From: a virus
Taxonomy: Duplodnaviria > Caudoviricetes
DNA length: 64,000 nt
Virus record (IMG/VR): IMGVR_UViG_2654588144_000016
Coordinates: 1-64,000 of that record
Reading direction: 5' to 3' (one strand)
The notes under the pieces are model-generated. The model ran no database searches. It saw only the letters and a list, made by a program, of their open reading frames with translations, and was not told where the DNA came from. Positions 1,865 through 29,141 of the stretch are shown here, in pieces. Each line of letters starts with the position of its first letter. Position 1 is the first letter of the stretch. The position numbers were made by a program, and so were the translations under genes.

Positions 1865-1867
1865 CTT

Positions 1868-2409: not shown

Positions 2410-2419
2410 TAGCAATTTA
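2410..2419 (+). repeat. Crossover site A1 (TAGCAATTTA)
   Basis: TTTAAAGTAGCAATTTAGC; inverted relative to A2. Confidence 0.85.
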
Positions 2420-2770
2420 GCGAACAAGAATATTATCGGGACCTATAATATTCCTAATATTACAGGCGTTTCAACATCGCCGAAGAATATCGCAGGCGGA
2501 TATCATAATGTGGCGAAATATAGTAATGGACAATGTATGTATTCTGCCCTAGTATATGTCTATACATCGGCTATCTCTAACTCCGTCATTGGAACCATAT
2601 CCAGCCAATATGCCCCAAAGCAGGATATCAGCGCCTATGTATATGATTTTGCAGGAAAACGCTTCCTCATGATATTAATATCGCCAGATGGGACAATAAA
2701 ACTGCTGACGTTGGAAGGGACAGCAATACCGGAATCTGCGGTTAAAGTAAGGGGAAGTATCGTGTTTTGA
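2411..2770 (+). other. Silent tail-fibre C-terminal cassette 1 (119 aa, SNLANKNIIG...GSIVF)
   Basis: Open frame from the AGC AAT TTA of site A1, in frame with ORF 2510..2770; no RBS/start of its own. Confidence 0.8.
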
Positions 2771-2771
2771 T

Positions 2772-2783
2772 AAATAATCATTT
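2772..2783 (-). repeat. Cassette junction motif B1 (AAATGATTATTT)
   Basis: Same 12-mer as 7671..7682 and 28370..28381; contains the fibre stop codon. Confidence 0.75.
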
Positions 2784-3668
2784 AATAGCGATTACAAGAC
2801 CCGAAAGACTTATGTTTGCTGTGCCTGTTGCTTGGTTATTACCTTTAATATGTACTTGTCCGTTTTGCCATATACAAGTGCTTATGTTTATTTTAGTACT
2901 GTTATCTCCAGAGATATCAGATAATACAGAAAATACCCATCTATACGCAGATGTCTCAATGTCCACGGGTATATTGGCAAAAAAATCATCTCCGGCAACA
3001 ATAGGAATACTCGATTTAGAATAAGTCATCACAGTTATTTTGGATGCTAAATTGCTATTTAAATTATTTGCCGCTTCCGTCAAATTAGCTCCGGCGGTCA
3101 ACTGTGTTCCCATTCCAATCCGCTCAACCAGTGTATGAATATACGCCGCAGTCGGAATCTTGCTAGAATCATTTGAATCAATGCTGGTAAGCATACTTTT
3201 CAATAATGCGTTCTGATTCAAATTCATTGTCGTGGCAATAGCTTTAGACACCTTGCCTAAAATGGTTGCAATTGCTTCTCCAGTGATAATATTCGCCAAA
3301 TTAGCAGCCTGAGTGAATTCCGTATTGACATCAATTGCGCTATCACTTCCCACCTTAATACTGTTACTTCCTTTTACAATGCCAGTGGTAGATTGGGTAG
3401 CCTTTTTTGCACTCATCTTTCCACTGCTGTTAACGGTAGTTGTTGTGCCGTCTGGCATGACAATACCGGCCTTAGAAGCTGTTGCCAGCACTGCGCTTTT
3501 GCAGAATAATTTGTAGTTCACGCCATCATCTGTAGGCGTAACACCCTTCACTGTTTTTAGCGTCATGTACGCATCACCCTGATAATGTACAAAGGTCAAT
3601 TTTTCATATGTTGTACTGGCGGAATAATTCCCACCGTCTGTCACTGCTACTTTTCCTAAATCTGCCAT
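2778..3668 (-). CDS. Tail fibre / receptor-binding protein: constant aa 1-204 plus expressed cassette 2 (aa 205-296)
   Basis: Fibre-like repeats (ATASKAGIV, ATQSTTGIV); junction NNLNSNLA encoded by site A2. Confidence 0.8.
   Translation of the reverse strand: MADLGKVAVTDGGNYSASTTYEKLTFVHYQGDAYMTLKTVKGVTPTDDGVNYKLFCKSAVLATASKAGIVMPDGTTTTVNSSGKMSAKKATQSTTGIVKGSNSIKVGSDSAIDVNTEFTQAANLANIITGEAIATILGKVSKAIATTMNLNQNALLKSMLTSIDSNDSSKIPTAAYIHTLVERIGMGTQLTAGANLTEAANNLNSNLASKITVMTYSKSSIPIVAGDDFFANIPVDIETSAYRWVFSVLSDISGDNSTKINISTCIWQNGQVHIKGNNQATGTANISLSGLVIAIK
3048..3057 (-). repeat. Crossover site A2 inside fibre gene
   Basis: Minus strand TTTAAATAGCAATTTAGC. Confidence 0.85.
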
Positions 3669-3738
3669 ATTACGTCACCTCACTAATCAAATGTTTCTGC
3701 ATCCCATATAACCGTCCTATCCTTACCAATCCTTACAA

Positions 3739-4521
3739 TCATACTGTCTCCCCACTTCCAATTTGAGAAATAAGATGCCCAGATGAATCTAATGACAGAT
3801 AAAAATTATTTCCACCAATAGCTAACAGATGTCCATTCCCAATATCCACGTATACATTTGGATAAGTCATTGCGGCAACTTCTTGTGCGATTTCGGAATA
3901 TTTTTTAGATTGGTCACAGTAATATTCTGCATTATCTGTCTCGCTTCCATCAAATTCAGCATCACCGATAGCATATCGCTTTGCATTTTTCTGGTACTGC
4001 AAGGCAAGGTCTCTAGCCGACTCAGCATCCAAAAGATATTGCAAAAACGTACTTTGGATAGACGCATCCAGCTTCGCCATGGTAACGGAACCGTCAACGA
4101 TTTCAGCCGTAACTTTCCTGTTTACCATCTTCATCGTGATTGTTGCTGTATTTGAAAAGCTATACACAAACCTTGTCAAATCTACCCGTTTCTTAGTCCC
4201 ATCAGCCAAGGTGAGGATTAGGATATTGTCATCCGTTATGTCAAAATTCACAACTACACGCTCAATGTCCAAATCGTATGTATATACCGTACCGTTTAGC
4301 AGAGTAACCGTAATCACACCAGTTTTCGCATCAACCACAACGGATTTAACCATCAGATTTGCTTCCGATTTTTCTAGTTTTTCAGTATCAAGGTGGATAA
4401 TCCGGTTATCGGCTTCCTTGATTCCGTTTTCTACATGGAGAAGGTTTGTCCTGTTTATTGGCGTTTTCTGAATTGGAAGGTTCTGCCAATCCGTTATCTG
4501 GTAAAACGGTTTATATGCCAT
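3739..4521 (-). CDS. Baseplate/tail-fibre-associated structural protein
   Basis: 260 aa; N-terminal W-N-P...TPINRTNLLHVENGI motif common in Firmicutes tail proteins. Confidence 0.6.
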   Translation of the reverse strand: MAYKPFYQITDWQNLPIQKTPINRTNLLHVENGIKEADNRIIHLDTEKLEKSEANLMVKSVVVDAKTGVITVTLLNGTVYTYDLDIERVVVNFDITDDNILILTLADGTKKRVDLTRFVYSFSNTATITMKMVNRKVTAEIVDGSVTMAKLDASIQSTFLQYLLDAESARDLALQYQKNAKRYAIGDAEFDGSETDNAEYYCDQSKKYSEIAQEVAAMTYPNVYVDIGNGHLLAIGGNNFYLSLDSSGHLISQIGSGETV

Positions 4522-4715
4522 TACACATCTCCCTCTTTCTTTTCTTCTTCAATATATTCCTTTAATGGTTTTCCGGCTTCCAAGATGCTGGCAATCAGTG
4601 CTAGTTTCCGGGCCGCCGCAATTCCCTTGCATTCAAGGCTATCAATAAATCCAACAACTTTATCTATGTCTCTTTTACGGTATACTATCAGTTCGTCTCG
4701 TTTTTCCATGTCCAT
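4521..4715 (-). CDS. Small hypothetical tail-region protein
   Basis: 64-aa ORF coupled to both neighbours. Confidence 0.5.
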   Translation of the reverse strand: MDMEKRDELIVYRKRDIDKVVGFIDSLECKGIAAARKLALIASILEAGKPLKEYIEEEKKEGDV

Positions 4716-6772
4716 TCATCCTTCCTCAAATTTATATACTGAATTGCTCCCGCGAGAATTGCTATATAGTTTCCATATGGCAACGTATATATATCCTCTT
4801 TCTCGTAGTATCCAACCAACGCATAATCCAGATGTAATTCACGCAATACTGTTTTGACATCCTGTGCTATAAATCCTACGCCATGTATATCACAGTCTAT
4901 CAGTTTATAAGCTACAGGTTGCAATCTGGAAACTATTTCATAACATTCCTCTGGGCTTATTTTTTGAATATTCTCCTTGCATCTTCCGTCTGAAATATAC
5001 TGCCAATCCTTACCATACACCGTACCAGTACAATATATCCCTCTCGCATTAACACCGCCAAACGACCCCGTGCCAGCCTCTATTTCTCCATTGCACTCAA
5101 TCCCTTTCTCAGCATAAATGATTCCTGTTGAGTTAAATGCCGCGGCCCTTATTACAGCGTCTGAAGCTTCAACAATGCCAGATGAATTAACCTTAAATTT
5201 CCCGTTACCAATATCGATATTGCCGCCAATAAAAGAGGCACCTCTAATATTTCCCGAAAAAACAGAATCACCACTTTCATCAACCGTAAAATTTTTTGCA
5301 GTAATGATAAAATTCCCTGTGGTCAATTCTATCCTATGGCCTGTTATTTTTAATTCTGAATTCAGCTCACTTGTAACTTCACCCCTGGAAACCTTCTCGC
5401 TAACGCGCAGAGCTATTTCATTTGCTTTTACCGACAAAGAGGATTCAGCTTCCTGCGCTCGCTTAACCTCAGCAGAAATTTCATTGGATGTCACTTTAAA
5501 TTGAGCTTCAGCATATTCTTTTAAATCCGTTACTTTGACAGATACTTCCTCGACTGATTTTTTAATTACAGCTGCTTTTCCCTCTAGCTGGACAATCTCT
5601 GAACGTATGCCTGTATTCTCTTCCAATTCAAGGCTTCCGCGAGCCTCATAGGTATCCATCATTCCCTGGATGCCATTTAGCGTCCGCTTTAGGCAATAGG
5701 TTTCAATTACATCATCTGTTGTATAACAGATAATACCATCTCCCACCTCAACCCAAGGAAGCGCCGGGCCCACTATTTTGCACGGCCTGTACAACCGTCC
5801 ACTTATCTGGTCATAGATAACATCCGCAATTCTGTCTAATTCTTCGCTTGATTTTCCATATGCCAGAAAATTCCCTTGAACCACATAGCAATTTGTACCT
5901 TCCTCATGTGACCAACCGCCAATATCGCCCTCTTCCTGACGTATTTGGACTTTATCAATTGGCCTCACTGTATAATCTTCATAACTGGTTTCTGACTGTT
6001 TATAAAAAGATAGTGTCTCCCCTTGTGACATCTGGGAGGGGAATAAATTATCGTCAGGAAATAAATCTTCGGAAGGAAACAGACTTGCATTTTCAAGCGA
6101 AACATATTTCACTCGGCCAGTCTTATCTATCTGCCCGAAGCATCCATTAATTTCGCAAATGGCCTGCAACACTTTTAATCCGCTCAATTGCTCCGGCTCG
6201 ATTGTCTTTGAAATCAGCATATTATCAAGTGGGAGCGACGTGTCAACCTGCTCTATTCCGATATGACCGCACAATGAATCCCGGAGAGATTTCAGCGTCA
6301 TTGGGAAATTCAGGCCCTGATACCAGGCAGTAACGTCCGTTTGAAATCTTCTCATTCGATTGTAAGCGGTGATTTTCTTTTTTCTGCGGTCAGATTCCAA
6401 CCTCACAAAACTTTCTACCCGATAAATCCCCATGGCCATTTCGTATCCACCAACTTCAATGGTGAAGATAAATTCTTTTCCGGAAAGGTCAATCAATACA
6501 TCTGCCACAGTGATTTCAAACTGCGCCGCATTACACTCTCCAAATTTCAAATCATCGCTTTCACATAGGCTCTCAGTGATTGTCAATGCTTCGGTAAGCA
6601 CCTGCTTATTGTCTATCACATAACACGGCTCTTGGTCTATCGGAAGCAACTCGCCAGAAGGAGACAGGGGAACATCTTTGTTGTAGAAATACAATTTCAA
6701 ATGTCTCCGTGTATCATTTGTTGTATTGTCAGACTTAAATAAACTCTTTATGCTCTCCGGAATATCCAGCAT
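4688..6772 (-). CDS. Tail tip/spike protein with C-terminal S74-type intramolecular chaperone
   Basis: 694 aa; C-terminal SDGRCKENI...LQPVAY...GFIAQDV motif; follows distal tail gene. Confidence 0.75.
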   Translation of the reverse strand: MLDIPESIKSLFKSDNTTNDTRRHLKLYFYNKDVPLSPSGELLPIDQEPCYVIDNKQVLTEALTITESLCESDDLKFGECNAAQFEITVADVLIDLSGKEFIFTIEVGGYEMAMGIYRVESFVRLESDRRKKKITAYNRMRRFQTDVTAWYQGLNFPMTLKSLRDSLCGHIGIEQVDTSLPLDNMLISKTIEPEQLSGLKVLQAICEINGCFGQIDKTGRVKYVSLENASLFPSEDLFPDDNLFPSQMSQGETLSFYKQSETSYEDYTVRPIDKVQIRQEEGDIGGWSHEEGTNCYVVQGNFLAYGKSSEELDRIADVIYDQISGRLYRPCKIVGPALPWVEVGDGIICYTTDDVIETYCLKRTLNGIQGMMDTYEARGSLELEENTGIRSEIVQLEGKAAVIKKSVEEVSVKVTDLKEYAEAQFKVTSNEISAEVKRAQEAESSLSVKANEIALRVSEKVSRGEVTSELNSELKITGHRIELTTGNFIITAKNFTVDESGDSVFSGNIRGASFIGGNIDIGNGKFKVNSSGIVEASDAVIRAAAFNSTGIIYAEKGIECNGEIEAGTGSFGGVNARGIYCTGTVYGKDWQYISDGRCKENIQKISPEECYEIVSRLQPVAYKLIDCDIHGVGFIAQDVKTVLRELHLDYALVGYYEKEDIYTLPYGNYIAILAGAIQYINLRKDEWTWKNETN

Positions 6773-6785
6773 CTATTATCACCAC

Positions 6786-7190
6786 CTAATATTCTGTAAA
6801 TGTTACCTTAATTGGCTTGTACAAAATCTCATTTTTCCCTTCATCAACCATATAAAATTCGTATGGCACATCAGCAATATAAAACGCCCCCGAAGCATAC
6901 GAGGACGTATTAGGATTCCAATATTCAACTTGACATTTCACCCTGTTGTCATGCGGCAAGAAGGAATTAAGTATTTCCGCATCTTTCAAATACAAGGCAG
7001 TTGTTGTGAATTCGATTGATGTAGCCGTGTGTGGAAGCGCAGTCCGATGCAATACTCCATCCGCATCTCGATATGGGTCTAAATCCATTATCTGGTCTGG
7101 AGTGATTTTTAGGGATTCAGCCGCAATAAGTCTGGTGGGGAACGTCTTTCCATTTATTTTTAACAGCCATCCTTCAAAAGCCATAATCAT
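6786..7190 (-). CDS. Distal tail (Dit-like) protein
   Basis: 134 aa; LLKING...RDADGVLHR...VTFTEY; first gene of tail-tip module. Confidence 0.6.
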   Translation of the reverse strand: MIMAFEGWLLKINGKTFPTRLIAAESLKITPDQIMDLDPYRDADGVLHRTALPHTATSIEFTTTALYLKDAEILNSFLPHDNRVKCQVEYWNPNTSSYASGAFYIADVPYEFYMVDEGKNEILYKPIKVTFTEY

Positions 7191-7312
7191 CCCCTCTTAG
7201 CAAACAAAAACACCCAGGATTACCCAGGTGTTATCATATTTCTCTCACTATAAATTTTATCACTTTTTGAATGAAAATTATGAAACTTATTTAATATGAC
7301 ATTCTTCTAAAC

Positions 7313-7373
7313 AATACCATTTTAACATATCCAGGGTGGCATTTGTGGCAAAGATGAATAAAGTAGCAATTTA
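7313..7373 (-). promoter_or_regulatory. 61-bp repeat copy 1: putative late promoter (TGCCAC direct repeat, TGnTAAAAT -10) fused to site A3
   Basis: 57/61 identical to 28045..28105 by eye; points into the tail-tip genes; promoter function is inferred. Confidence 0.7.
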
Positions 7374-7676
7374 GAACTGGAATCAGGGGGAACTACCATT
7401 AATACGGATTGGGTTACCGGAACAGCCAATTATTATAAAATCGGAAAACAATGTGTGGTCAATGCGCTTGTTACATTAAAGCAAGATACATCAGTTAATA
7501 ATACACTACTAATCAGCGGATTGCCTGCTGCTGCGCAGGAAAAAGTATGCCTGATTCATGGTACAACAGGATATGGGGTATTTAAAGTTCTTGCCAATAC
7601 TGGCGACATAACTATTGATGCCGGAGCCAAGGGAAACAGCATATTTTACTTCGAGATAATTTATCCCGCCAAATGA
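7365..7676 (+). other. Silent fibre cassette 3 (103 aa, SNLELESGG...IYPAK)
   Basis: Open frame from site A3 (7364..7373), in frame with ORF 7455..7676. Confidence 0.8.
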
Positions 7677-7682
7677 TTATTT
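7671..7682 (+). repeat. Cassette junction motif B2 (AAATGATTATTT)
   Basis: Contains abutting TGA (+) and TAA (-) stops. Confidence 0.75.
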
Positions 7683-7910
7683 AGTCCAGGATGGTTTCCA
7701 CTCATTATCCTGACGATAGAAGAACTTCATTGCACCATCCGTGGTGCTAATATTAAGTGCATAGCCAAATTCCCTATTCGGTCCAGTCAACCACTGAATT
7801 AGAACATTGTTACTGTCAGTACCAATTGCAAATCCAGTGACGTTGAGCATGACAATCGATTTTTTCAAATTGTTAAAATCAACGGCATTTGCTTTATTTG
7901 TTAAATTGCT
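7677..7910 (-). other. Silent fibre cassette 4 (77 aa, SNLTNKANAV...PSWTK)
   Basis: Open frame from site A4 (TAAATTGCTA 7902..7911). Confidence 0.78.
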
Positions 7911-7929
7911 ATTTTCCAAAATAGAACAG

Positions 7930-7960
7930 GGCAGGAAAGCCATAAGGGGGCTTTCCTGCC
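7930..7960. terminator. Perfect 12-bp hairpin, probable terminator after R-M genes
   Basis: GGCAGGAAAGCC-N7-GGCTTTCCTGCC. Confidence 0.6.
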
Positions 7961-8056
7961 TTGATTACCCATCAGCAAAGACGGGCGAGGCTGTCAACGG
8001 CGGCGCTGTAAGCGCCGTTCATCTTGACCGTTGACTGGCTCGGATGGCTATGCTAT

Positions 8057-9745
8057 TTACGAAGCCAACCACGTATCTACGCAAGCTTGAATGCCAAAAC
8101 ACCAATGATTTTCATCTGTTGCATCCTCACAAAATTTGATGGCATAGTCGAGGAAACGCCGAATGTCGCTTGGAACAGGTTGCGTTTCATAGTTATATGA
8201 GTTTTCAATAAGACGCATAAATTGATCTAGTTCTAATGGTATGATTTTCGACTTGCCACCATATAACGCAATAGACAAATGATTTAGGCCGTAAAAATGT
8301 GCCAGAGTTGCAGGATTGATAGACGGAGCGATAAAGAGACAATAAGTGTCTTTTCCAGATCTTTTCTTCAACTGACCATAATGACGTGCAACGGGTTCTC
8401 CTTCAGATTCATATTGACGCTGACCAGCTTGTAAGGTTACCTCTACAGACAAAGAAAAATCGTCATAGTCACATTCGATATCAGGCATATTTCCGGCCGC
8501 GGTCGAAAGTGGATGTCCAGCGTCATCAAAATTGAAATTACCTTTAATATTGCCGCCGTCAAGCATAGTCATTGCTCGCCATGTATTATACTCAAACATC
8601 AAGGGCGCGTCATAATATTCATCAGAGATAATTTCATTGAATGTGTCAATAATTTCCGAGTACAACGCATAAGATTTTATTTCTGCTACCTGCTCATGTA
8701 TAACAGCATCTTTGTGTCGTTGAACAATCTCATCACGTAAGTCTTTTAGTTCCTCAAGATTTATGCCTGATAACTCCCGTTTCGTAAAATTGCCAATCCG
8801 CATAAGTACATCAACAATATTATCTATATTATCTGTATAAAGAATAGGCGTACTTGCTGAAAACAACTGTGTTTTATAAGCGTTTACATCATTAATAAAA
8901 ACTGGGTCACGCGTCACCGTTGAAAGAATAAAGTCCACTTCAATGACTTTGTCTGCAAAAATAGATATAGACCGACTTTTATGAGAGATAGAGATTAAGC
9001 CAGTATACCTCAAGTAACGGAAGCAAGCATCTGCATAATCACGCATATTACTTTTCTGAGTAGCAATAAACTTTTTTAAACTGGCATCATTTGTTTCTCT
9101 TGTCCTTGTTTTCCCAGCAGCAATTCTATCACGATGTATATCTAAGATTGCATTTTCCCATACGCTATTAACAAAGCGCTTATACTGCCCTCTGTTTTGT
9201 TCTTTATTCTCTCTGAATTGCAAAATAGAATCCCGTATTATCTCAAATTTATGATAATCTGTCATCTGGACAGCAAATATCTTAAATTCATCAAAGGTAA
9301 TGTATTCCAATTCACGGACTAACCGAAAAATTTCGAGATAAGGGCGAATACAAAAAGTCCCAACAATATTTTTGCTCTCCAAATGATATGGAGAAGGTAA
9401 CTGGAATTTTAGTAATTGTCGAAGAAAAATTTCTTGTGGACGCTTGCCATAGATAAAAGCATTCCCAGCTTCCGTTAACTCTATATACGGTTTCAAGTCG
9501 ATAAACCCCAATGCCTTTGGTGCCCGATTGATTCTGTCTCTGGCACTAAACGCTTTATCTGCGGGCGATCCTTTTCCCTCAAAAAATTCACTTTGCGCTA
9601 ATTCATCAATAAACTGCTCTTGAGTCGATTTGTCCCATGATAGCCCTGAAAATTTTTCATGCAATAACTGAATTTCGGGTATCATTTTAGCCGGAGTTCT
9701 TGGCGAAGTAGTAAAAAACAATAGCTTATTATCAATTCTTGCCAC
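8057..9745 (-). CDS. AlwI-family type IIS restriction endonuclease (MlyI/PleI/Nt.BstNBI-like)
   Basis: N-terminal TSPRTP motif; C-terminal PD...VEVTL...QYESEGEPVARH catalytic region. Confidence 0.85.
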   Translation of the reverse strand: MARIDNKLLFFTTSPRTPAKMIPEIQLLHEKFSGLSWDKSTQEQFIDELAQSEFFEGKGSPADKAFSARDRINRAPKALGFIDLKPYIELTEAGNAFIYGKRPQEIFLRQLLKFQLPSPYHLESKNIVGTFCIRPYLEIFRLVRELEYITFDEFKIFAVQMTDYHKFEIIRDSILQFRENKEQNRGQYKRFVNSVWENAILDIHRDRIAAGKTRTRETNDASLKKFIATQKSNMRDYADACFRYLRYTGLISISHKSRSISIFADKVIEVDFILSTVTRDPVFINDVNAYKTQLFSASTPILYTDNIDNIVDVLMRIGNFTKRELSGINLEELKDLRDEIVQRHKDAVIHEQVAEIKSYALYSEIIDTFNEIISDEYYDAPLMFEYNTWRAMTMLDGGNIKGNFNFDDAGHPLSTAAGNMPDIECDYDDFSLSVEVTLQAGQRQYESEGEPVARHYGQLKKRSGKDTYCLFIAPSINPATLAHFYGLNHLSIALYGGKSKIIPLELDQFMRLIENSYNYETQPVPSDIRRFLDYAIKFCEDATDENHWCFGIQACVDTWLAS

Positions 9746-9758
9746 TACTACGCCCTCC

Positions 9759-10613
9759 TTAATAATTTTTCACAACAATATGCATTTTATCATTGTTAAA
9801 GCGGTTTCTTATATTAACGGAATAGTTTTTATAGTATTCATCAAATATATATCCGTTGTATAGTTCTTCCGTTAATGATGTCTTTCCAATTACCATTAGC
9901 GCACGACATTGCAAATTTCTAAAATCTGCGGCTAACCGTCTATGTTCAGCTTCATCAAAACCATTCATCATATCAATATTGCCATAGTCGTTAAACACAC
10001 AATCATATGGTGGATCGAGAAAAATGAAATCCTCCTCTTCTGCCATATCAAAAATTTCTCTGTAATCAAGATTAAAAAGTTCTGCTCGCTGCAACAGTTC
10101 GCTGTGTTGTTGCGTTACCAGTCTTGTATTGAGATTGGGGTAACGTCCAAAGGGAACATTATATTCACCGTTACTATTATAGCGGATCATGCCAGAATAG
10201 GCTGTTTTATTGATGAAGAAATATAATACCCCATCTAAAAAGCTATTGTCTGGATGATTAAAGAGCTCTCGCATATGATAGTACAAGTCCTCATTTGCGT
10301 TTGGCACTCGTTCATCAGGGGTCAAAATTTTCAATCTTTTAAACTCGGCTTGATTAATCTCATAAATTCTTTGGAGCCTATCAAGTTGCGTGCGCATAGT
10401 TGGGTAGTCATCCCGTAATTGCTGATAAAAAGTCATTAACCGGGTATTTGCGTCATTAATAATCGCATTATCGGGTTCCAAATAAAAAAATACCGCTCCG
10501 CCTCCAAAGAAAGGCTCAATGTAACGGTTAAAGTCATCTGGAATATATTGAAGAAAGCGGGGTATTTCCCTCGATTTTCCTCCTCTATATTTTAAAACCG
10601 GGTTCATAAGCAC
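9759..10613 (-). CDS. Dam/D12-class N6-adenine DNA methyltransferase
   Basis: KYRGGK, EPFFGGG, DPPY motifs; coupled to endonuclease. Confidence 0.9.
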   Translation of the reverse strand: MLMNPVLKYRGGKSREIPRFLQYIPDDFNRYIEPFFGGGAVFFYLEPDNAIINDANTRLMTFYQQLRDDYPTMRTQLDRLQRIYEINQAEFKRLKILTPDERVPNANEDLYYHMRELFNHPDNSFLDGVLYFFINKTAYSGMIRYNSNGEYNVPFGRYPNLNTRLVTQQHSELLQRAELFNLDYREIFDMAEEEDFIFLDPPYDCVFNDYGNIDMMNGFDEAEHRRLAADFRNLQCRALMVIGKTSLTEELYNGYIFDEYYKNYSVNIRNRFNNDKMHIVVKNY

Positions 10614-10870
10614 ACCTCGCTTTCTGTAATTCTAAATGAAGGCTAAATCAATCCATAATTATTGTAGCATACAAGGCTGCTCTCTACAACTCATTTTTGC
10701 TACTTATCATAAATAAATATATGTGGATAGTGAAATCAAAATATTCATTTAGGGATATTGCAACTATTCTAAAACATAATTCGGAGTAGAGAAGAAAACA
10801 CTGAGAAATTGATTATTATATTGACTTACTGACAATAATATGATAGATTGAATATTAATTAAACATTCGT

Positions 10871-11011
10871 GTGTATATGCTAGCGATGCGGTCGCCTTGA
10901 CCATATACATAAACCTTGGGTCGCCAGGATGCCAAGATGTACAGCCAGCTCACGGAGCCTTGACGTTGTAAGTAGATGTAACAGTCTGCTTATTTCGCCA
11001 AGGCTTTTTTT
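10871..11011 (+). ncRNA. Unnamed ~140-nt structured RNA/leader, copy 1
   Basis: TTGACT-17-TAGATT promoter (10821..10849) upstream; stems covary with copy at 43521..43665; ends in hairpin plus T-run. Confidence 0.6.
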
Positions 11012-11170
11012 GTTAGTCATTCATGCCTTAGGGCTTGAATATATCGGCGATAGTCCTGCTGGGGTATGTTCCCGGTCTGCCAAAAGCTACAGGCGGCGAA
11101 ATGCCGCTTGCAGTTCCTCAACCGATTGAGAATTAGAACTTTTAACAATCAATTTTCGGAGGAAACAAAC

Positions 11171-11872
11171 ATGAACGCATTAAAAATTTTTAGTAATGAT
11201 GAATTTGGAGAAATTAGGACGGTAGAGATTGACGGAAAAATTTATTTTGTCGGTATTGATATTGCACGCGCACTTGGCTATTCCAATCCCAGTAAAGCGG
11301 TTATTCAACATTGCAAAGGGGTTACCAAATTGGGAATACCTTCAAATGGGGGCAAACAGGAGACGAATTGCATTCCAGAGGGAGATTTATACCGCTTGAT
11401 TACGCATAGCGAATTACCTTCTGCAGAACACTTTGAAAATTGGGTTTTTGATGAAGTCCTCCCCTCTATCCGTAAACACGGAATCTATGCAACCGACAAA
11501 GTAATCGACGACATCCTGAATAATCCGGATTTCGGAATCGAACTCCTAACAAAATTGAAAGAAGAACGAGCCGCCCGTCTGGTAGCAGAAAAGAAAAACG
11601 CCATTCTTATGCACGTCAACAAAACATATACGATGACAGAAATTGCCAAGGAACTCGGTCTGAAGTCTGCCATAGAACTGAACAAACTACTTGCCGAAAA
11701 GAAAATCCAATATAAAGTAAATGAAACGTGGGTCATGTATTCTCAGTACAGCGACTTGGGTTATGAGGAAATCAAACAGGAAGTCTTGGACAACGGCAAA
11801 GTTATCTATCACAGAAGAATTACACAGATGGGCCGGGAATTTATATTGAATTTATTCGATTTTGTAGCATAA
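11171..11872 (+). CDS. Phage antirepressor (BRO-N + KilA-C)
   Basis: FGEIRTV...WVFDEVLPSIRKHG BRO domain; ITQMGREFI C-terminus; GGAGG RBS before ATG 11171. Confidence 0.9.
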   Translation: MNALKIFSNDEFGEIRTVEIDGKIYFVGIDIARALGYSNPSKAVIQHCKGVTKLGIPSNGGKQETNCIPEGDLYRLITHSELPSAEHFENWVFDEVLPSIRKHGIYATDKVIDDILNNPDFGIELLTKLKEERAARLVAEKKNAILMHVNKTYTMTEIAKELGLKSAIELNKLLAEKKIQYKVNETWVMYSQYSDLGYEEIKQEVLDNGKVIYHRRITQMGREFILNLFDFVA

Positions 11873-21845: not shown

Positions 21846-21853
21846 ACAAACAC

Positions 21854-22430: not shown

Positions 22431-22857
22431 TTTGCATTCCTCCCTCTGTCACTTTCCGAATCGCATACAAAACCGAATTCAAAGACTTTGCCACCTTAAC
22501 AACCTTGAAATCGGGCTTATTGGTCAACTTTCCGTCTGCGCAAAATTCCGGCTTCTTATCCACGAATAACACCGACAATTCATCAATCGGCAAATTCATG
22601 TCACAAGTGGCAATCGTTTTGTCATAAGCCAAATCAACGCCAAATGGGTCTGTATTTGCTTCCCCTCTGGCGGCTGATACGTTTGCCCGAAACTCCACAG
22701 GGTCAGCATAGCCAACAGTACAATCGCCAGTCAAAAGCGGTTCTCCGGTCACGGGGTCATAGATGATGTTACCATCAAGGTCTGTCTCATAGACCGGAAT
22801 GTGTTCTGAATAGAGCTGATACCACATCTTTTGCTTATTGCGTTTCAGTCCTCTCAT
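22417..22857 (-). CDS. Head closure/stopper protein
   Basis: Start MRGLKRNKQ; position after connector; VAKSLNSVLYAIRKV C-terminus. Confidence 0.65.
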   Translation of the reverse strand: MRGLKRNKQKMWYQLYSEHIPVYETDLDGNIIYDPVTGEPLLTGDCTVGYADPVEFRANVSAARGEANTDPFGVDLAYDKTIATCDMNLPIDELSVLFVDKKPEFCADGKLTNKPDFKVVKVAKSLNSVLYAIRKVTEGGMQNDST

Positions 22858-22873
22858 AGTGCCCACCGCCTTA

Positions 22874-23359
22874 TCACTCAACCAGAACCCAATCCTCTGC
22901 CAGCATATCAGCCTGTGAAGCAAGCCATCCCATCTGCACTCCAGACGTTCCGACAAAGGCAATGGCTTTATTTCCGATTGCTTCATGCTCCACATTCACA
23001 GCGTTTCCATCTGCGTCAATATAGCTGATATTAGTCGCAAGCTGAATATATTGGTTCCTTCCATTCCAGCCTTTACGGGCAACACGCTCTCCTCTCTTCA
23101 TACGAGATATTGCCTCGCCGAATGTAAAAGTGGACACGTCAAGTCCCGTAATGGAATCCCAGTCAACAATTTCCCAGTCATCTGCCATCATGTGGTCGAT
23201 ATCAACAAAGATACACTCTGTTTCCATGAATGGAACTTTTGAACCGTCTTTGCAGTACATGACAATCGTTTCATCTTCTTTGCGCCAGAAACCTTTCCAT
23301 GATGGTCTTTTAATATCTGCGCCCTGTTTCAGTGCTTCATAAGCTTCTTTAAAAATCAT
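22874..23359 (-). CDS. Tandem DUF2829 (Tad2-like) protein
   Basis: Two copies of F-EA..LK.G..(I/V).R..W ... DM(M/L)A(D/E)DW. Confidence 0.75.
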   Translation of the reverse strand: MIFKEAYEALKQGADIKRPSWKGFWRKEDETIVMYCKDGSKVPFMETECIFVDIDHMMADDWEIVDWDSITGLDVSTFTFGEAISRMKRGERVARKGWNGRNQYIQLATNISYIDADGNAVNVEHEAIGNKAIAFVGTSGVQMGWLASQADMLAEDWVLVE

Positions 23360-23399
23360 TCTTCTTTACCTCCACAAATTTCCTCATAATTTACTTTAA

Positions 23400-23558
23400 T
23401 CATTCTTTTCCCTTGAGTTCGTTCATTCTGTCCTGAATATATCCCTCAAGCACTGAAAATCCTTTTGGCGTGTCAAATCTTTTCCTTTTCAGTTCGGTTT
23501 TGATGGTATTGATTTCTTCTTTTACGCCCTGTAATTCAATCAATCCACCAGTTTTCAT
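23400..23558 (-). CDS. Small hypothetical protein
   Basis: MKTGGLIELQ..., 52 aa; upstream extension in ORF track overlaps the connector gene. Confidence 0.45.
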   Translation of the reverse strand: MKTGGLIELQGVKEEINTIKTELKRKRFDTPKGFSVLEGYIQDRMNELKGKE

Positions 23559-23712
23559 ATCATCGTTCACTTTTCCTCCATAACCTCCACAAAAGAAAAA
23601 TGCGCTTGCCCACCACCATTCACAGCGCACACCCTGCGTCCAGCCGGGGAGGTATCGACCGGACACGCTCCGTCTTTTAAAAGGAGAGTCAACTTTTGGA
23701 ATTACATACGGT

Positions 23713-24033
23713 TCAGAAAATTTTTGCCATCGGGACAACATCAAAATAGATATCGTCTTCTTTCTCATATGCTCGGCTGATTCCATTCTCGCTGTGAGAG
23801 CTTTCACCATCAGCCCCTTGTTTCGCCCAATAGTAAACAGCGGCGGCAAATATCGTATCACGATACCGCTCAACCGCTGTCTCTTTCTCCGTGTCCGTGT
23901 ATCCAAACGGATACCGCTTCGCACAAACCTTTCGGATTGCTCTCTGGATTAAGATGAACAGAACCGACAAATCTTTTTCGGCTACCTCGTCACCAAGATA
24001 TGTAATTACATCATCCAGAATCTCCGCTTCCAC
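23713..24033 (-). CDS. Head-tail connector (SPP1 gp15-like)
   Basis: GADGESSHSENGISRAY motif. Confidence 0.85.
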   Translation of the reverse strand: MEAEILDDVITYLGDEVAEKDLSVLFILIQRAIRKVCAKRYPFGYTDTEKETAVERYRDTIFAAAVYYWAKQGADGESSHSENGISRAYEKEDDIYFDVVPMAKIF

Positions 24034-24049
24034 TCATTTCACCTCACAA

Positions 24050-25372
24050 TCAGCCTGCCTTTGCGGTCACCGTTGTGCTACCGGCTTTCAGAGCCTTGTA
24101 TGCTGAATCGCACTCAACTACGGTAATGGTCTTTCCAGTCTGCGCTGTAATGTCAGCAGAGCCATCCCATGCAGTCCAGGTCTGGACATTCTGACCGAAA
24201 ACAACAGCGGTTTCGGAATCACCTATTTTATACTTATATGAATTTCCGCTTGCCTTTGCCGGGGAAACAGTCAGTTTCGTTGCTCCGCTTGCAGAACCGG
24301 CGGATGATTCCACAGTCAGAGTGCCAAGAGTGTTCTCAGCAGTAGTAACCGTAGCGATTACCATACCATATACGTCCGGAAGGACCGGGATAAACATACC
24401 AGAAGCTTTCGTCCATTTTGCAACAGGGTCTTCGGTCGCCCACATGGTCACGGTTACAAACATTTTCTGCAATGCTTCCTGGAATGCAGCATACTCAGCC
24501 TCCTCCGGAGTCGGTCCCCACAAACCAGTACCGGCCCTACCAGATACATCCGCCGTATAGAAGGTAACCTTGTCCTCATCGAAGTAGCGACCATTCACTC
24601 TGGAACCATCAGCCTTGATGTAGGCATATCTTTCATCACAGGTAGCAATTTGAAGGCCGAACTCCTCCATGATGATAGACCGAAGTTCATTCATGGTAAC
24701 CAGTCTACCCGCATTGATATTACCGTAGATTGCGGATTGGATGCCCTTGTTCTTTCTCATGCGCTGAATCTGGGTATCAGAGGTCAGCATTCTGGACGGA
24801 ATTTTACCCTCATCCTTCAGCATTTTTACTGCCTTCATGATATCGCCAAAGATATCATATTCTGGGTTAGACCAATCACCAAAAGTGATTTTATGAGCCG
24901 CAGGTACACCAAAATCAATCAACATATCCAGATTATTTTCCTTGATTTTCATTACACCACGGCTCATTGCCTGACCTTTGGCAATCTTGGTACGGGTAAC
25001 AACGCTCTCGGACAATCTGCCCATATCGTCAAACACCCAGTTCACCAGACCATCATCATCTGGTACACCATTGTTGATGTACATCTGCAACTGCTCGGAC
25101 TGATTGATTTTCTCCTTGATAAACAGTTTCTCAGTCAGAACTTTCTCGAAAGTCGGCCTGGTACCGATGTGCGCCTCGGAATCCAGAGCATGCACAAATG
25201 CAGGAGTTGGCAAATTCTGTCCCTGCATTAGCCGGTAATACTCAGCCTTGAAGTGCTGTGTCTTCACGTCCGGGAAAATGGTATCCAGAACGGTTGGCCT
25301 TGCAACGGCGAAGTTCTGAGAAAAATTTAATCTCTCTGTAACATTAATTGTATCCAATACATTAAATGGCAT
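24050..25372 (-). CDS. Major capsid protein (capsid E-like) with C-terminal Ig-like extension
   Basis: 440 aa after scaffold/decoration; C-terminal ~95 aa Thr/Ser-rich beta domain. Confidence 0.85.
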   Translation of the reverse strand: MPFNVLDTINVTERLNFSQNFAVARPTVLDTIFPDVKTQHFKAEYYRLMQGQNLPTPAFVHALDSEAHIGTRPTFEKVLTEKLFIKEKINQSEQLQMYINNGVPDDDGLVNWVFDDMGRLSESVVTRTKIAKGQAMSRGVMKIKENNLDMLIDFGVPAAHKITFGDWSNPEYDIFGDIMKAVKMLKDEGKIPSRMLTSDTQIQRMRKNKGIQSAIYGNINAGRLVTMNELRSIIMEEFGLQIATCDERYAYIKADGSRVNGRYFDEDKVTFYTADVSGRAGTGLWGPTPEEAEYAAFQEALQKMFVTVTMWATEDPVAKWTKASGMFIPVLPDVYGMVIATVTTAENTLGTLTVESSAGSASGATKLTVSPAKASGNSYKYKIGDSETAVVFGQNVQTWTAWDGSADITAQTGKTITVVECDSAYKALKAGSTTVTAKAG

Positions 25373-25386
25373 CTTTACACCTCCAA

Positions 25387-25731
25387 TTAAAATTCACATT
25401 CTGGAGCATCAAGAATTACAAATCCTTTTTTCTCCAAAGCTGTCTTGGCTTCGCTGGATAACGGCGTCTTTAATCTATTTCCGTAGATTCTTCCAGCTTT
25501 AATAACGCTGGCTGGACGATTTGTATCGTCAGTCATATCAACAGTTTCAAATACAATACCAGTTGCCTTGGAATCATTAGACGGGAATGCCGTTCCAGCA
25601 TAAATAAGCTTCTTGTTGTCAACTGTAGTTGCCATCTCCTGGGTAACCATCTCTGTTTTCTGAACCAGGCCAACGGCAGATTCCAAAAAATTTGGCAGGC
25701 TATATCCCTGCTCAACCTTCATGTAAGCCAT
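25387..25731 (-). CDS. Head decoration protein
   Basis: AGTAFPSNDSKATGIV motif; between scaffold and capsid. Confidence 0.65.
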   Translation of the reverse strand: MAYMKVEQGYSLPNFLESAVGLVQKTEMVTQEMATTVDNKKLIYAGTAFPSNDSKATGIVFETVDMTDDTNRPASVIKAGRIYGNRLKTPLSSEAKTALEKKGFVILDAPECEF

Positions 25732-25743
25732 GTCATATCCTCC

Positions 25744-26355
25744 TTAAAATGTTGTTGTGGCAGCCGGAACCGGATTGCCTACCGTCGGCTGTGGGTTATG
25801 TTCCTGCGAATACTGTTTCGCATATTCAGCGGCAGCACTCTTTTCTTCTCCACCTCCAGCCGGGTCGGATTTGCCTCCGGTCCCCGGATTCGGAGTTTTG
25901 TCAAAAGTTTCTTTCTGCCACTGGGTCTTGTTCGCTTCGTCGCGTTTGGAGATTCCATTGACAAAAGATTCTGCGCTGGTCTTTGCCGCCTCCAAATCAA
26001 GCCCGGATAATGCGCCAATCATCCCGGAAAACTCCTCGCCGGAAAGGTTTGCTTTTGCGAAAATCGCTTCGACTGCGGAAGTTGTAAGCTGCTTCTGTAA
26101 ATCTGCCGTTCTCTTTTCCGCTGCCTCTCTGGCTTTCTTCTCCTTTTCCAATTCGGTAAGATTCTGTTGCTCAAGACCATCAAGTTTGGTTTGCAGCTCC
26201 TCCGCCTTTTCAGCTTCTTTTTTCCATTTCTCAGCGTCTTCCTGATATTTCTTTACTTCTCCATTGTGCTGATTTAGGTAATTGGTTACCTGCTCATCAG
26301 TAGGTTCCTCGACGCCAAGCGCAACCAGATTCTTCTTTGCCTGTTCTCTTGTCAT
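25744..26355 (-). CDS. Capsid scaffolding protein
   Basis: MTREQAK start, charged coiled coil, TPNPGTGG linker. Confidence 0.8.
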   Translation of the reverse strand: MTREQAKKNLVALGVEEPTDEQVTNYLNQHNGEVKKYQEDAEKWKKEAEKAEELQTKLDGLEQQNLTELEKEKKAREAAEKRTADLQKQLTTSAVEAIFAKANLSGEEFSGMIGALSGLDLEAAKTSAESFVNGISKRDEANKTQWQKETFDKTPNPGTGGKSDPAGGGEEKSAAAEYAKQYSQEHNPQPTVGNPVPAATTTF

Positions 26356-26456
26356 GTTATTCCCCTTTCTAATCCACGCTTTTGATAACGCAGGTCGCTC
26401 CTGCTGGATTTTGCCATTTATCGGATGGCTCCATTTTGATATAAAAAAAGAAAAGC

Positions 26457-27905
26457 CTACTCGGCTCCTCCTGTTTTAACTGTTTCAGTTTGCTTTGTTT
26501 TCAAAAGTTCCAATGCGTGTTCTTTTTCAGCTTCAATATCAAGTTGCTCCTGCGTCTTGAAAATGGTATCCATGTACGGCTTACTCTGCGTCCAAACCTT
26601 TTCCGGGTCACCAAACAGCCCGCATACAGTAATTGCAATCAGCGGATGAATCTTATTTTTCAGTAAATAATCCAGCGCCTGTGCCTTAACCAGCATATTA
26701 TCAGTAGAATTTCGAGTAATCTTCACATCGAAGTCTCTTACTGTCAGAGGAACATCATTTGTTGTTTGCTTAATGATATTCAAAACAATTCTGGCATGTT
26801 TTTTCTCTGCCTCAATGGTAAATGGTTCATCCAGTTTTGCCCGCTGTTCCGCAAAATCCCAACCATTCCGCAGGTAAACCGCCTGTCCGGTATCTCCGCC
26901 GGTATTCTGCTGTCGGTCTGGCATACCCTCAACGACAAGTACTTGTCGGTACACATCATCCTTGGCTACTTGCGTCTGCTGCTGATTCAATTCAGCCGTC
27001 ATGAGTTTTACATCTGATTGCATTCCCTGACCGGAATCTTTAACCTCCACAGCACCAAGGTCACACATCTGTAAAAACTTCTTCTCATCAATCTCACAGT
27101 TCTTAAAAAGCATAAATGCCTGAATAAACTGTTCAATACCATTCATGCGGTCGGACTGCATTTTGTTAATCTGGTCAAGAAGCGTAATCACAATTTCAAT
27201 GTCGGAGAGCCTGTCCGGATTATTCGGATACTCCACAATCGGAATACCGCCAAAACCATTTATTCCAGAATCAGTTACTCTACCGCCCTTGATGATGAAA
27301 TATAAATCATCCGAATAGCACTGATAATACTGTTCGTCTTTTTCATCCTTCAATACCTGAATGGAAAGCATATCTGAATCATCTTTGGCAGAATACACAA
27401 CAATCGTATTCAGCGGATTCGGAATATGGATTCGGAACGGAACAATATCTGTTGACTTTCCTTTAAGCGTTACCTTGTAGGCAGTTCCAACGGCACTCTG
27501 AAAATTTCCAAGCTTGATATCTCTGGCCTGCCGATGAGCGTCCTTCATGTAATCATTTAGTTTATCCACGGCATCATTGATTTTTTTATCTGTTTTTCGG
27601 CTGACATACTGTATCGGCTCCCCATATGTCTGACTGGTGCTAAAGCGGACAATTTCAAGTGCATGGTTCTCGCAGGTCTTATTGTTGATGTCAGGCCGCA
27701 CTTTCTTTTCACGGTAATGAATCGGCTGGTCACCCTTGTAGTAATCGTAAAGATACCGTATCGCCGGTCGATTGTAATTCAGAACTGAAATGGCCTTACC
27801 AACGACACCAACAACATTTTCTTTGGTAATTCTATCGACATTCGTATATGCAATTTTTCTACCAAAATGTCCATGGCATAAATCAATAAAGCTATTACTG
27901 TTCAT
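26457..27905 (-). CDS. Portal protein (SPP1 gp6-like)
   Basis: LYDYYKGDQ, YGEPIQY, IPIVEYPNN motifs. Confidence 0.9.
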   Translation of the reverse strand: MNSNSFIDLCHGHFGRKIAYTNVDRITKENVVGVVGKAISVLNYNRPAIRYLYDYYKGDQPIHYREKKVRPDINNKTCENHALEIVRFSTSQTYGEPIQYVSRKTDKKINDAVDKLNDYMKDAHRQARDIKLGNFQSAVGTAYKVTLKGKSTDIVPFRIHIPNPLNTIVVYSAKDDSDMLSIQVLKDEKDEQYYQCYSDDLYFIIKGGRVTDSGINGFGGIPIVEYPNNPDRLSDIEIVITLLDQINKMQSDRMNGIEQFIQAFMLFKNCEIDEKKFLQMCDLGAVEVKDSGQGMQSDVKLMTAELNQQQTQVAKDDVYRQVLVVEGMPDRQQNTGGDTGQAVYLRNGWDFAEQRAKLDEPFTIEAEKKHARIVLNIIKQTTNDVPLTVRDFDVKITRNSTDNMLVKAQALDYLLKNKIHPLIAITVCGLFGDPEKVWTQSKPYMDTIFKTQEQLDIEAEKEHALELLKTKQTETVKTGGAE

Positions 27906-28044
27906 CAGCTTTTACCCTCTTCTGTCAAAAAAGTAAGGCCGTTGGAGGATTTTCTATATCCTTCAACGGCTTGCATTTATTTCAATATTAATAGTTATAT
28001 CAAACATCCTTAATTTAATTTGGATGTCTCGCATACTTTTTACT

Positions 28045-28105
28045 AATACCATTTTACCATATCCTAAGTGGCATTTGTGGCAAAGATGAATAAAGTAGCA
28101 ATTTA
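28045..28105 (-). promoter_or_regulatory. 61-bp repeat copy 2: putative late promoter for portal operon fused to site A5
   Basis: TTGCCACAAATGCCAC...TGGTAAAAT on minus strand; downstream of activator gene; promoter function is inferred. Confidence 0.7.
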
Positions 28106-28375
28106 AACGATGGAAAATACTGGCGTGCATATACAACCACTTTTGCATTTGGTCGAGAAATACCAGCTGGTAAAGACATGACATTTGATTTAAATATTAG
28201 TTTTCCGGCACGTCCATCTGTACTTGTCATTATTCCCTCTACTGCCAAAATAACAAACGTAAGGTATGATTTTGACAATTCGACCTCGACCAAGACAAGA
28301 ATCATCTTTGACAACGAGGGAGCGACAATACCCGCAGATGCTATGGTACGTATGGGCGTTATCGCTATCAAATGA
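28097..28375 (+). other. Silent fibre cassette 5 (92 aa, SNLNDGKYW...GVIAIK)
   Basis: Open frame from site A5 (28096..28105), in frame with ORF 28178..28375; same length and VIAIK end as expressed cassette 2. Confidence 0.78.
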
Positions 28376-28381
28376 TTATTT
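28370..28381 (+). repeat. Cassette junction motif B3 (AAATGATTATTT)
   Basis: Identical to B1 and B2. Confidence 0.75.
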
Positions 28382-28687
28382 GGTAAAATAAATCATCTCA
28401 AAGTAAAATATACTGTTACCTATGGCCCCTGAATCAATGGTTATATTGCCGGTATTGGCAATAACCTTAAACACTCCATATCCTGTGGTGCCATAAATTA
28501 AGCATACTTTTTCTTGTGCGGCCACCGGAAGTCCACTAATCAGTAGTGTATTGTTAATTGTTGTATTTTGCTTTAATGTAACAAGTGTATTTACTACACA
28601 TTGTTTTCCGATTTTATAATAATTGGCTGTTCCGGTAGCCCAATCCGCATTTATGGTAGCTGCCCCTAATTCCAGTTCTAAATTGCT
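28376..28687 (-). other. Silent fibre cassette 6 (103 aa, SNLELELGA...IYFTK)
   Basis: Open frame from site A6 (28679..28688); paralogue of cassette 3. Confidence 0.8.
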
Positions 28688-29141
28688 ACTTCTTTTCTTT
28701 TTGAATCGCATTCAGAAACTTATCAATCTTAAGTCCTATGGTCCTCCTGCTATAATTCAATTTCTTCGCTATTTCTCCATCGGATTTGCGTTCTACATAC
28801 TTTAATCCTAAAATATGCTTAATTTCAATATCCTCAGCAGGTAGTGTTTCCAAAAAAGTCTCAATATCTAATTTCATATCTTCAAAAAGTTGTTCATTAC
28901 CTTTGAGGTCGATAATCAACTGGCGTACCATTTTTTCCCGTTCTGAGTTCGACTTTATAGTTGGACCAGAAACCACAAAATGACATTCAGTAAATGGAAA
29001 CTGCTTCATAGAGCCTTTTACGATGCCATACTGTTGCTGAACCGGATGATTTTCATAATATTTTATTCTGCCCCGAATTCTTTTGATTTCAGATTCCAGG
29101 TACACATAGGTTGCCAGATACTCTCTTGTCAAAGTTTGCAT
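28686..29141 (-). CDS. RinA/ArpU-like late transcriptional activator
   Basis: C-terminal sigma70-r4-like HTH (LKYVERKSDGEIAKKLNYS); its TAG stop is part of site A6. Confidence 0.7.
   Translation of the reverse strand: MQTLTREYLATYVYLESEIKRIRGRIKYYENHPVQQQYGIVKGSMKQFPFTECHFVVSGPTIKSNSEREKMVRQLIIDLKGNEQLFEDMKLDIETFLETLPAEDIEIKHILGLKYVERKSDGEIAKKLNYSRRTIGLKIDKFLNAIQKEKK

Follow-up and report, generated by a model that had tools for sequence, protein, structure and literature searches.

A probable dispersed shufflon of tail-fibre tips in a temperate phage of gut Lachnospiraceae

The DNA considered here, referred to as the window, comprises the first 64,000 bases (1-64000) of an IMG/VR provirus record of 77,666 bases (IMGVR_UViG_2654588144_000016), and covers the greater part of a siphovirus-type temperate prophage whose gut host is one of the Lachnospiraceae (Lacrimispora/Clostridium-like). 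The late and replication gene set, together with a terminal large serine recombinase, marks it as a temperate siphovirus-type phage of a Bacillota host, and the closest genome matches to the phage are Lacrimispora and Clostridium sp. The system in question is a gene for a tail fibre, or receptor-binding protein, and six alternative 3' ends, or tips, that lie in three pairs across 26 kb, each behind a copy of one short site, an arrangement suggestive of a shufflon.

Sites, cassettes and the fibre gene

The sequence TAGCAATTTA has exactly six matches in the window, whereas 100 shuffles of the window gave a mean of 0.33 and a maximum of 2, with none of the 100 reaching six; no further copy is present in the rest of the 77,666-base record. 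The first site, s1 (2410-2419, + strand), in the context AAAG-TAGCAATTTA-G, is the outer site of the fibre-side pair P1, and s2 (3048-3057, -) lies inside the fibre gene, where it encodes N-S-N-L. Sites s3 (7364-7373, +) and s5 (28096-28105, +) are exact copies of TAGCAATTTA, s4 (7902-7911, -) follows directly on the terminator hairpin of an AlwI-type endonuclease gene, and the TAG of s6 (28679-28688, -) is the stop codon of a regulator gene. From 50 distinct contexts in relatives, the conserved element is AAR-TAGCAATTTA-R, of approximately 14 bp, in which short dyad arms, AAAT and ATTT, flank AGCA. All six window sites are intact, AAR context included.

The sites form three convergent pairs. 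P1 (2.4-3.1 kb) is at the 3' end of the fibre gene, P2 (7.4-7.9 kb) is 4.3 kb from that gene, upstream of a DUF6711 gene and the tail-tip genes, and P3 (28.1-28.7 kb) is 25 kb from it, between the regulator and portal genes. The frame AGC AAT TTA (S-N-L) is open after the six sites, in order, for 119, 92, 103, 77, 92 and 103 amino acids (aa). Five of the resulting cassettes are silent: A (2411-2770, +; 119 aa plus stop) at P1, C (7365-7676, +; 103 aa plus stop) and D (7677-7910, -; 77 aa plus stop) at P2, and E (28097-28375, +; 92 aa plus stop) and F (28376-28687, -; 103 aa plus stop) at P3. The sixth, B (2778-3056, -; 92 aa plus stop), is expressed as the present 3' end of the fibre gene. C and F are paralogues, 83% alike within the window.

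A stop codon stands two codons upstream of the site for cassettes A, C and E, and within nine codons upstream in four of the five silent cassettes; at random window positions that likewise have an in-frame stop at most nine codons upstream, at least 77 open codons follow in 5% of cases. An in-frame ATG precedes the site by 8 codons for F and by 11 codons for D, in neither case with a Shine-Dalgarno-like motif, and the ATG preceding D sits within the terminator hairpin. The five silent cassettes thus appear to be without a convincing start of their own. In all of these respects, from the positions of the six copies and their pairing to the lengths of the S-N-L frames and the single fusion at residue 205, the preliminary description of the locus was accurate.

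The fibre open reading frame (ORF; 2778-3668, -) encodes 296 aa and reads ...LTEAANNLN|SNLASK..., its junction with the tip falling at residue 205. The constant part, aa 1-204, occupies 3057-3668 (-), and the similarity of relatives ends right after SNL. The gene follows the DUF6711 gene, a 694-aa S74 fibre gene and a 260-aa gene, a position in keeping with that of a tail-fibre gene. The 296-aa protein has only weak PHROG matches and no Pfam match; its Atlas neighbours are viral, some with Phage_fiber_rpt or Gp53-like_C, and serve as leads only. A profile search of solved structures gave a sole weak match, to the chitin-binding domain of chitinase A1 (E 0.27), which was not used.

Stored cassettes as fibre tips

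The constant part is encoded at seven IMG/VR loci, among which the tip past the junction varies. Tip A is fused to the constant region in L004, L005, L008, L072 and L076, and a C/F-type tip lies behind it in L075, with a C/F-type head in the mosaic of L070. Every one of 12 metagenome stretches with the exact constant-region junction bears a tip behind it, and these tips are of seven kinds: the AKTNAKV family (five stretches), the A family (two), and C/F, a C/F-head mosaic, EWK, VSK and KVGTTT (one each). A protein search with tip E yielded P0005, in which the constant part is identical at 197 of 207 residues (95%) and the E-type tip is 83% identical; the likeness of P0005 to the window stops directly past SNL, at residue 207.

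The same tips occur behind other proteins. E-type tips follow five further, unrelated N-terminal regions (P0001, P0002, P0008, P0009 and P0010), always through the junction motif D/N-S-N-L, and D-type tips are fused to other constant regions in L064/G015 and L042. The N-terminal region of P0001 consists of collagen-like G-x-y repeats, and its tip is 100% identical to E of the window. All six tip types therefore occur in frame with some fibre constant region, in the window or in relatives. Since every tip type stored in the window has been seen in an expression site, the remote cassettes are, on this comparative evidence, real fibre tips. The proposal of a fibre-tip shufflon that includes both remote pairs gains support accordingly from the C/F, KVGTTT and E tips found fused to this very constant region.

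Tips can themselves be mosaic. L070 (4681-5026) joins a GNIS-type linker to a C/F-type head, and L069 (7647-7964) joins another linker to a B-type head, which suggests that recombination also takes place inside cassettes. Three further tip 'families' proved to be chance matches of the relaxed pattern TAGCAATTTR within other genes (window 5886 and 24643; L004 1580) and were dropped.

Several tip families are found at more than one depot. ADK tips occupy the outer flank of P1 in G001 and the flank of the portal gene in G002. G011 and L031 likewise carry a KVGTTT tip beside the portal flank, and L080 has this family directly behind the constant part. A B-type head, constant-fused in the window, recurs in L069 next to the DUF6711 flank (94% to window 2777-2977). 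The core of the site changes between lineages and is uniform in all depots of one genome, even where these are 20-30 kb apart. Thus TAGCAATTTA is the core in G006 and G010; TAGTGATTTA in G003, with two pairs 29.5 kb apart, and in G004, this core being absent from the window's record, L004, L005, L008 and L009; TAACAATTTG in G007 and G008, with four pairs each across approximately 29 kb; and TAGTAATTTA in G009. Uniformity of the core within a genome is what is predicted if the crossover site requires identity between partners.

Blocks bounded by the sites

Between the depots lie whole operons. The tail-tip block S2 (4.3 kb) comprises, beyond the constant fibre gene, the region 3739-7190 (-), with the DUF6711 gene (6786-7190, -), the gene for a 694-aa fibre with a Peptidase_S74 chaperone domain (4688-6772, -) and that for a 260-aa protein (3739-4521, -). 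Block M, 20 kb between s4 and s5 (7912-28031, -), contains the portal, major head, major tail and tape measure genes, followed by an island with an antirepressor and a D12 methylase / AlwI endonuclease.

Each block begins with a conserved upstream element of 64 nt, one promoter-like and preceding DUF6711 (7300-7363, -), the other preceding the portal gene at the head of its block (28032-28095, -). The two are 88% identical (the 7300-7363 copy against 28032-28105). The 7300-7363 element holds TGCCAC twice and, on the gene strand, TTGCCA-16-TATGTT; relatives have the element at both of these positions, in some cases followed by a site and in others not. It is probably the promoter of each block. 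The 151-aa regulator encoded at 28686-29141 (-), which matches phrog_36 and, weakly, sigma-70 region 4, with an NCBIfam match under the family cut-off, is a candidate activator of both elements. At 7232-7209 (minus strand), past the conserved element and ahead of the start codon of DUF6711, stands a terminator-like hairpin with a T run, which may serve the tail-tip operon in regulation or antitermination. Searches with flank sequences also gave candidates that were set aside: the flank 13-mer has a near-copy at 47097 that shows no wider likeness, such near-copies being about as numerous as chance predicts (3 against 2.03), and six of the 18 stretches drawn by the 18-nt flank pattern (L019, L020, L022, L023, L027 and L029) are unrelated coding sequence.

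The comparison of related genomes for cassette order, which the preliminary description had recommended, revealed rearranged blocks with breakpoints at cassette pairs, besides the co-variation of cores across depots. The long-range REARRANGEMENT cases are G011 (with L005 and L031), G002 and five Lacrimispora/Clostridium genomes. In G011 one cassette pair connects the DUF6711 flank and the portal flank, which implies that the portal-to-tape-measure block is inverted relative to the tail-tip block by comparison with the window; a 10-N gap falls within one cassette of this joint, and L005 spans it with 1 mismatch while the end of L031 is 100% identical on the other side. G002 runs from the constant part by way of one pair to the portal flank (97% to window 28105-26587). 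It would be a circle excised between sites in direct orientation or, alternatively, a chimaera assembled from population states on either side of a 25-kb flip. All five Lacrimispora/Clostridium genomes, which include one complete chromosome, begin with TerL and the regulator and continue through the tail-tip block, fibre gene included, to the portal block, so that the tail-tip and portal blocks are permuted with respect to the window. In G007, G008 and G009 a lysis block separates the fibre gene from the portal block. Cassette pairs mark borders between blocks, but some borders in some genomes lack one: G007 and G008 have four pairs each and G009 has two. The relatives appear, then, to hold three arrangements of the same blocks, with their borders at sites. 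The unusual outer flank of L005 was considered as an inversion product and rejected, as it is a different lysis module.

Inversion in populations and in a sister phage

Alternative arrangements were sought in Logan contigs of four metagenome runs, in stretches of at most 20 kb, so that P1 and P3 never lay in one stretch. P1 is inverted in contigs of two of the four runs: in run X9 the joint connects 2409 to 3057, and in run X6, in a contig 94% alike, it connects 2380 to 3069. In run X1, which may be the source, a 4,166-nt contig joins the frame ...DVNGKISALN to SNL and a C/F-like tip, with a loose end before window 7364. The sequence upstream of this junction is not in the 77.6-kb record, which suggests a second fibre gene with the same junction type elsewhere in that genome.

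Inversion at this same site has taken place in a sister phage. G012-G014 (L058-L060 and L067) belong to an unrelated phage that bears a contiguous array, in which a constant part ending ...TLN|SNL is followed by the gene for a 341-aa tyrosine recombinase and then by two cassette pairs, all with TAGCAATTTA. Between G012 and G013/G014 the E/F pair lying between two TAGCAATTTA copies is inverted, and the flanks, 2 x 2,694 nt, are 100% identical.

Proposed mechanism

The best explanation of these observations, and one held to be highly probable, is a dispersed shufflon in which six tips in three start-less pairs undergo recombinase-driven exchange, long flips included. The exchangeable tip would be the C-terminus of the 296-aa fibre, with the approximately 14-bp site doubling as the N-S-N-L hinge. 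A site-specific recombinase, most likely the product of 47548-48582, would join oppositely oriented sites. The segments open to flipping would be a single pair (approximately 0.6 kb), the 4.3-kb tail-tip operon and the 20-25-kb portal-to-fibre block, and either long flip would set the 3' end of the constant part before another tip. As the conserved upstream element, probably a late promoter on which the regulator at 28686-29141 acts, heads each long block, a flipped block would retain its own transcription signal. For the same reason, that both invertible blocks start with the same 64-nt element, the second inversion at the outer sites, which had been postulated to restore operon orientation, is probably needless.

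The sites would also serve as docking points for the exchange of whole pairs between unrelated phages. Seven or more distinct fibre constant regions have ...N|SNL (or D|SNL) as their end and are followed by the same tip families; ready-made pairs could accordingly be tradable via recombinase-mediated cassette exchange. The fullest version of the scheme, in which the sites bracket promoter-bearing late-operon blocks, the recombinase flips and permutes modules of 4-25 kb, and the site is a docking standard across Lachnospiraceae phages, is evenly balanced between acceptance and doubt.

Several observations weigh against the dispersed shufflon as just set out. The preliminary description had placed inversion between 3057 and either 7364 or 28096; local inversion of P1 is borne out in two runs, but neither of these long-range joints, nor any other such as 2410/7911, is among the joints listed for the Logan contigs of the four runs. 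These contigs lose rare variants, so the absence is weak negative evidence. The possible source run has a single arrangement across 1500-7365. Among relatives, G011 is a scaffold with its 10-N gap, for which an assembly path through a duplicated cassette could account, and the order in G002 is impossible in one linear genome. A 4,580-nt contig, L003, which has the same 141-nt cassette end on both sides (141/141), once seemed proof of the 4.3-kb flip; it was rejected because L078 bears that tip family at both depots, and a cassette duplicated in this manner explains L003 equally well. The upstream element is read as a promoter from its conservation and from agreement with the consensus at 9 of 12 positions. 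A distance of 19 kb separates the tyrosine recombinase gene from P3, its nearest depot, and 44 kb separate it from the fibre gene; the identity of the enzyme to recombinases embedded in related shufflons is no higher than 29-37%. Finally, AlphaFold2 modelling of the 296-aa fibre from a 16-sequence alignment gave a mean pLDDT of 41.7 and a pTM of 0.21, too poor for the fold of the tip to be judged; the model's secondary structure, with helices to about residue 210 followed by strands, is no more than suggestive.

Active depots or passive stores

Exchange at the sites also crosses phage boundaries, and from this traffic comes the strongest alternative, namely that the remote pairs are passive stores or relics, that tips arrive mainly by recombination between phages at shared sites, and that long inversions within a genome are rare accidents, only the pair at the fibre gene flipping routinely. 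The E/F pair is 98.3% identical between window 28095-28689 and the unrelated phage of G012-G014, and the likeness ends at the sites on both sides; C/D and GVQIRK/KVGTTT likewise move as whole pairs. Tip pairs are thus traded entire between unrelated phages, precisely at the sites, a route absent from the preliminary description. In keeping with passive storage, the two prophages of the G009 genome have core and tips in common, the site is degraded or missing behind the flank in some relatives (G001, G002, G005, L021 and L034), and the run contigs displayed inversion of P1 alone.

What makes this alternative unlikely, if still deserving of attention, is the state and placement of the depots. 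None of the six window sites has decayed, the depots lie exactly at the ends of blocks that start with the conserved upstream element, and the blocks of relatives are inverted or permuted at sites. A recombinase that flips 0.6 kb would, moreover, have no known reason to skip identical sites 4-25 kb away.

Candidate recombinases

The record encodes one tyrosine recombinase and one large serine recombinase, and no small serine invertase was found in its 77,666 bases. The tyrosine recombinase (47548-48582, -) is XerC/D-like, with core-binding and catalytic domains of that type and no arm-type domain, and it scores under every equivalog cut-off. Among the recombinases compared, those nearest to it are three embedded in shufflons (165-186 bits), with 37% identity for G009 contig 34 and G008 contig 12 and 29% for G012, against 110-115 bits for the mid-genome recombinases of G007-G010. 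A homologue is found between DnaB and TerL in all five related prophages examined. This XerC/D-like recombinase is, as judged from these comparisons, most likely the invertase and the best candidate for it. The large serine recombinase, the only Resolvase-domain gene of the record, with an open frame of at least 457 aa, lies at 76.3 kb, at the record end, and its placement at that edge suggests an integrase.

It is improbable, and more so than passive storage, that the system works as described but is driven by another enzyme, whether the large serine recombinase or a host or co-resident-prophage recombinase acting in trans. Such an enzyme would suit the fact that the tyrosine recombinase adjoins no depot; the source-like run has its extra junction, ...DVNGKISALN|SNL, outside the record, so that a second shufflon element may share the cell, and in G009 the other prophage shares the core and has an embedded recombinase. 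Against it, the embedded enzyme in three contiguous relatives is the same kind of tyrosine recombinase, the homologue is kept at the same position in the five related prophages, and the serine enzyme at the record edge is integrase-like; we know of no shufflon run by a large serine recombinase. A last reading, in which the repeats arise by chance or from a common coding motif and the remote frames are small genes in their own right with no relation to the fibre, is scarcely credible. Although an in-frame ATG lies 11 codons before the site of D and 8 before that of F, neither has a Shine-Dalgarno-like motif; six sites stand against 0.33 expected, cores co-vary between depots, and the fusion of the same tips to fibre constant regions elsewhere, with the P0005 alignment, appears already to contradict it.

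Contiguous fibre shufflons were found in G009 contig 34 (L082) and G008 contig 12 (L081), with a tyrosine recombinase gene between two convergent cassette pairs. The first has the core TAGTAATTTA and a tip similar to those of the dispersed system in that genome's other prophage; the second has a different site, CAATTGTATAGTGA. In G006 (Lacrimispora xylanisolvens ASCUSBR21) the recombinase at chromosome 496593-497631 (L044) is split into overlapping ORFs of 167 and 197 aa, and the prophage has two truncated cassettes (22 and 34 aa), which may reflect a decaying system or a sequencing error.

The phage and its gene order

Genes are read from right to left along the window. Replication genes, for a DnaD-like loader, a DnaB-like helicase and a methylase, lie at 54-59 kb, five tRNA genes (Gln, Met, Phe, Tyr and Thr) are clustered at 36231-38233 (-), and the large terminase gene is at 29161-31986. 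Relatives extend past window base 1 with a lysin gene that encodes CHAP and choline-binding domains. No close named phage was found among GenBank phages, in which the best constant-region match is of 34% identity over 46% of the query.

At 941 aa the large terminase is longer than usual, and its residues 132-465 also match DnaC-like loader and primase families; in the DnaB-like helicase (55740-57782, 680 aa) the family match is split in two, 1-141 and 375-657. Inteins or fusions are possible in both proteins. An island at 8057-11872, between the tail genes and the tail-tip operon, encodes an AlwI-type endonuclease, a D12 adenine methylase and a Bro-N/KilAC antirepressor; in G001 and G002 approximately 3 kb of other DNA replaces its endonuclease/methylase part, and the antirepressor region is retained. 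Three metagenome runs cover the segment 7916-8055, from s4 to the end of the endonuclease gene, at word depths of 599, 2354 and 5655, where its neighbours reach approximately 10-50, which points to an element that is repeated widely. Within it, at 7960-7930 (minus strand), is a terminator-like hairpin of 12 pairs, and an Rfam search of 7700-8300 gave no match.

Relation to known systems

The Rci shufflon of plasmid R64 uses a tyrosine recombinase and short asymmetric sites for multiple inversions of convergent, start-less pairs of 3' ends; it switches the pilV adhesin of the conjugative pilus, and is contiguous, of approximately 2 kb, with rci adjacent. The window's system resembles it in the kind of recombinase, the convergent start-less pairs and the short sites, and differs in being dispersed and in serving a fibre, not a pilus. 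Sites of serine invertases consist of a 26-bp dyad with a 2-bp crossover and act with a Fis-bound enhancer; at the present sites approximately 14 bp are conserved. The Min (p15B), Gin (Mu) and Cin (P1) systems (see PMC6109161) likewise swap a fibre C-terminus by inversion, and Min has six crossover sites, but in these a small serine invertase lies beside a contiguous 3-4-kb segment, and the present record has no such invertase.

A close known system is the Rin shufflon of Bifidobacterium breve/longum prophages (Mavrich et al. 2018, PMC6109161), which is contiguous, with rin adjacent and 11-bp rix sites, and which has a counterpart in Eggerthella lenta prophages with 8-bp sites (PMC8778435). 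Both Rin and the present system belong to temperate phages of Gram-positive gut bacteria, join the constant 5' part of a receptor-binding protein gene to one of several start-less 3' cassettes, have a short site at each cassette and within the gene (11 or 8 bp there, approximately 14 bp here), and possess a XerD-like tyrosine recombinase without an arm-binding domain, separate from the integrase. Unlike Rin, which occupies one locus with rin adjoining the cassettes, the convergent pairs here are in three places across 26 kb, whole operons lie between the sites, and the candidate recombinase is 19-44 kb off and does not flank the cassettes. The hosts of Rin are Actinobacteria and the present one belongs to the Bacillota.

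The tail-fibre shufflon of BV01-like Phocaeicola phages (preprint, PMC13596623) is contiguous over 1.7 kb and flanked by its recombinase gene. It too is a phage-encoded, multi-cassette switch of a fibre end, with directional 10-bp motifs and six isoforms, but its activity within the 1.7-kb region has been shown by reads, whereas the present system is dispersed and we infer its long-range flips from sequence. Programmed inversions have also been surveyed more broadly (PMC9881135, PMC5903667).

Further likenesses come from the relatives themselves. The arrays of G012-G014, G009 contig 34 and G008 contig 12 have the same or a related core, tip families in common and a related tyrosine recombinase, but there the constant part, pairs and recombinase lie within approximately 4-5 kb; these contiguous sister shufflons show the window's system in undispersed form. 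No dispersed phage shufflon was found in the literature searched, which did not extend to supplements, in agreement with the novelty first claimed for the layout, and no paper combining shufflon, Lachnospiraceae and phage was found in the same literature. The window's system is thus a real dispersed variant of the tyrosine-recombinase (Rin-type) fibre-tip shufflon, in which long-range switching and the identity of the enzyme are inferred.

Implications

Known host-range switches (Gin, Cin, Min, Rin and BV01-like) are compact, at 1.7-4 kb, whereas here spare tips are kept up to 26 kb away, at operon borders. If long flips are routine, a temperate phage tolerates programmed inversion of most of its structural module, its gene order is fluid, as the three arrangements among relatives suggest, and short-read assemblies would break or mis-join at cassettes; several related contigs do end within cassettes. 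The sites also offer natural docking points for tip swaps in laboratory phage work. The shared site and tip families point to a common pool of receptor-binding tips among abundant gut Lachnospiraceae phages, and such a pool bears on the prediction of host range for uncultivated phages.

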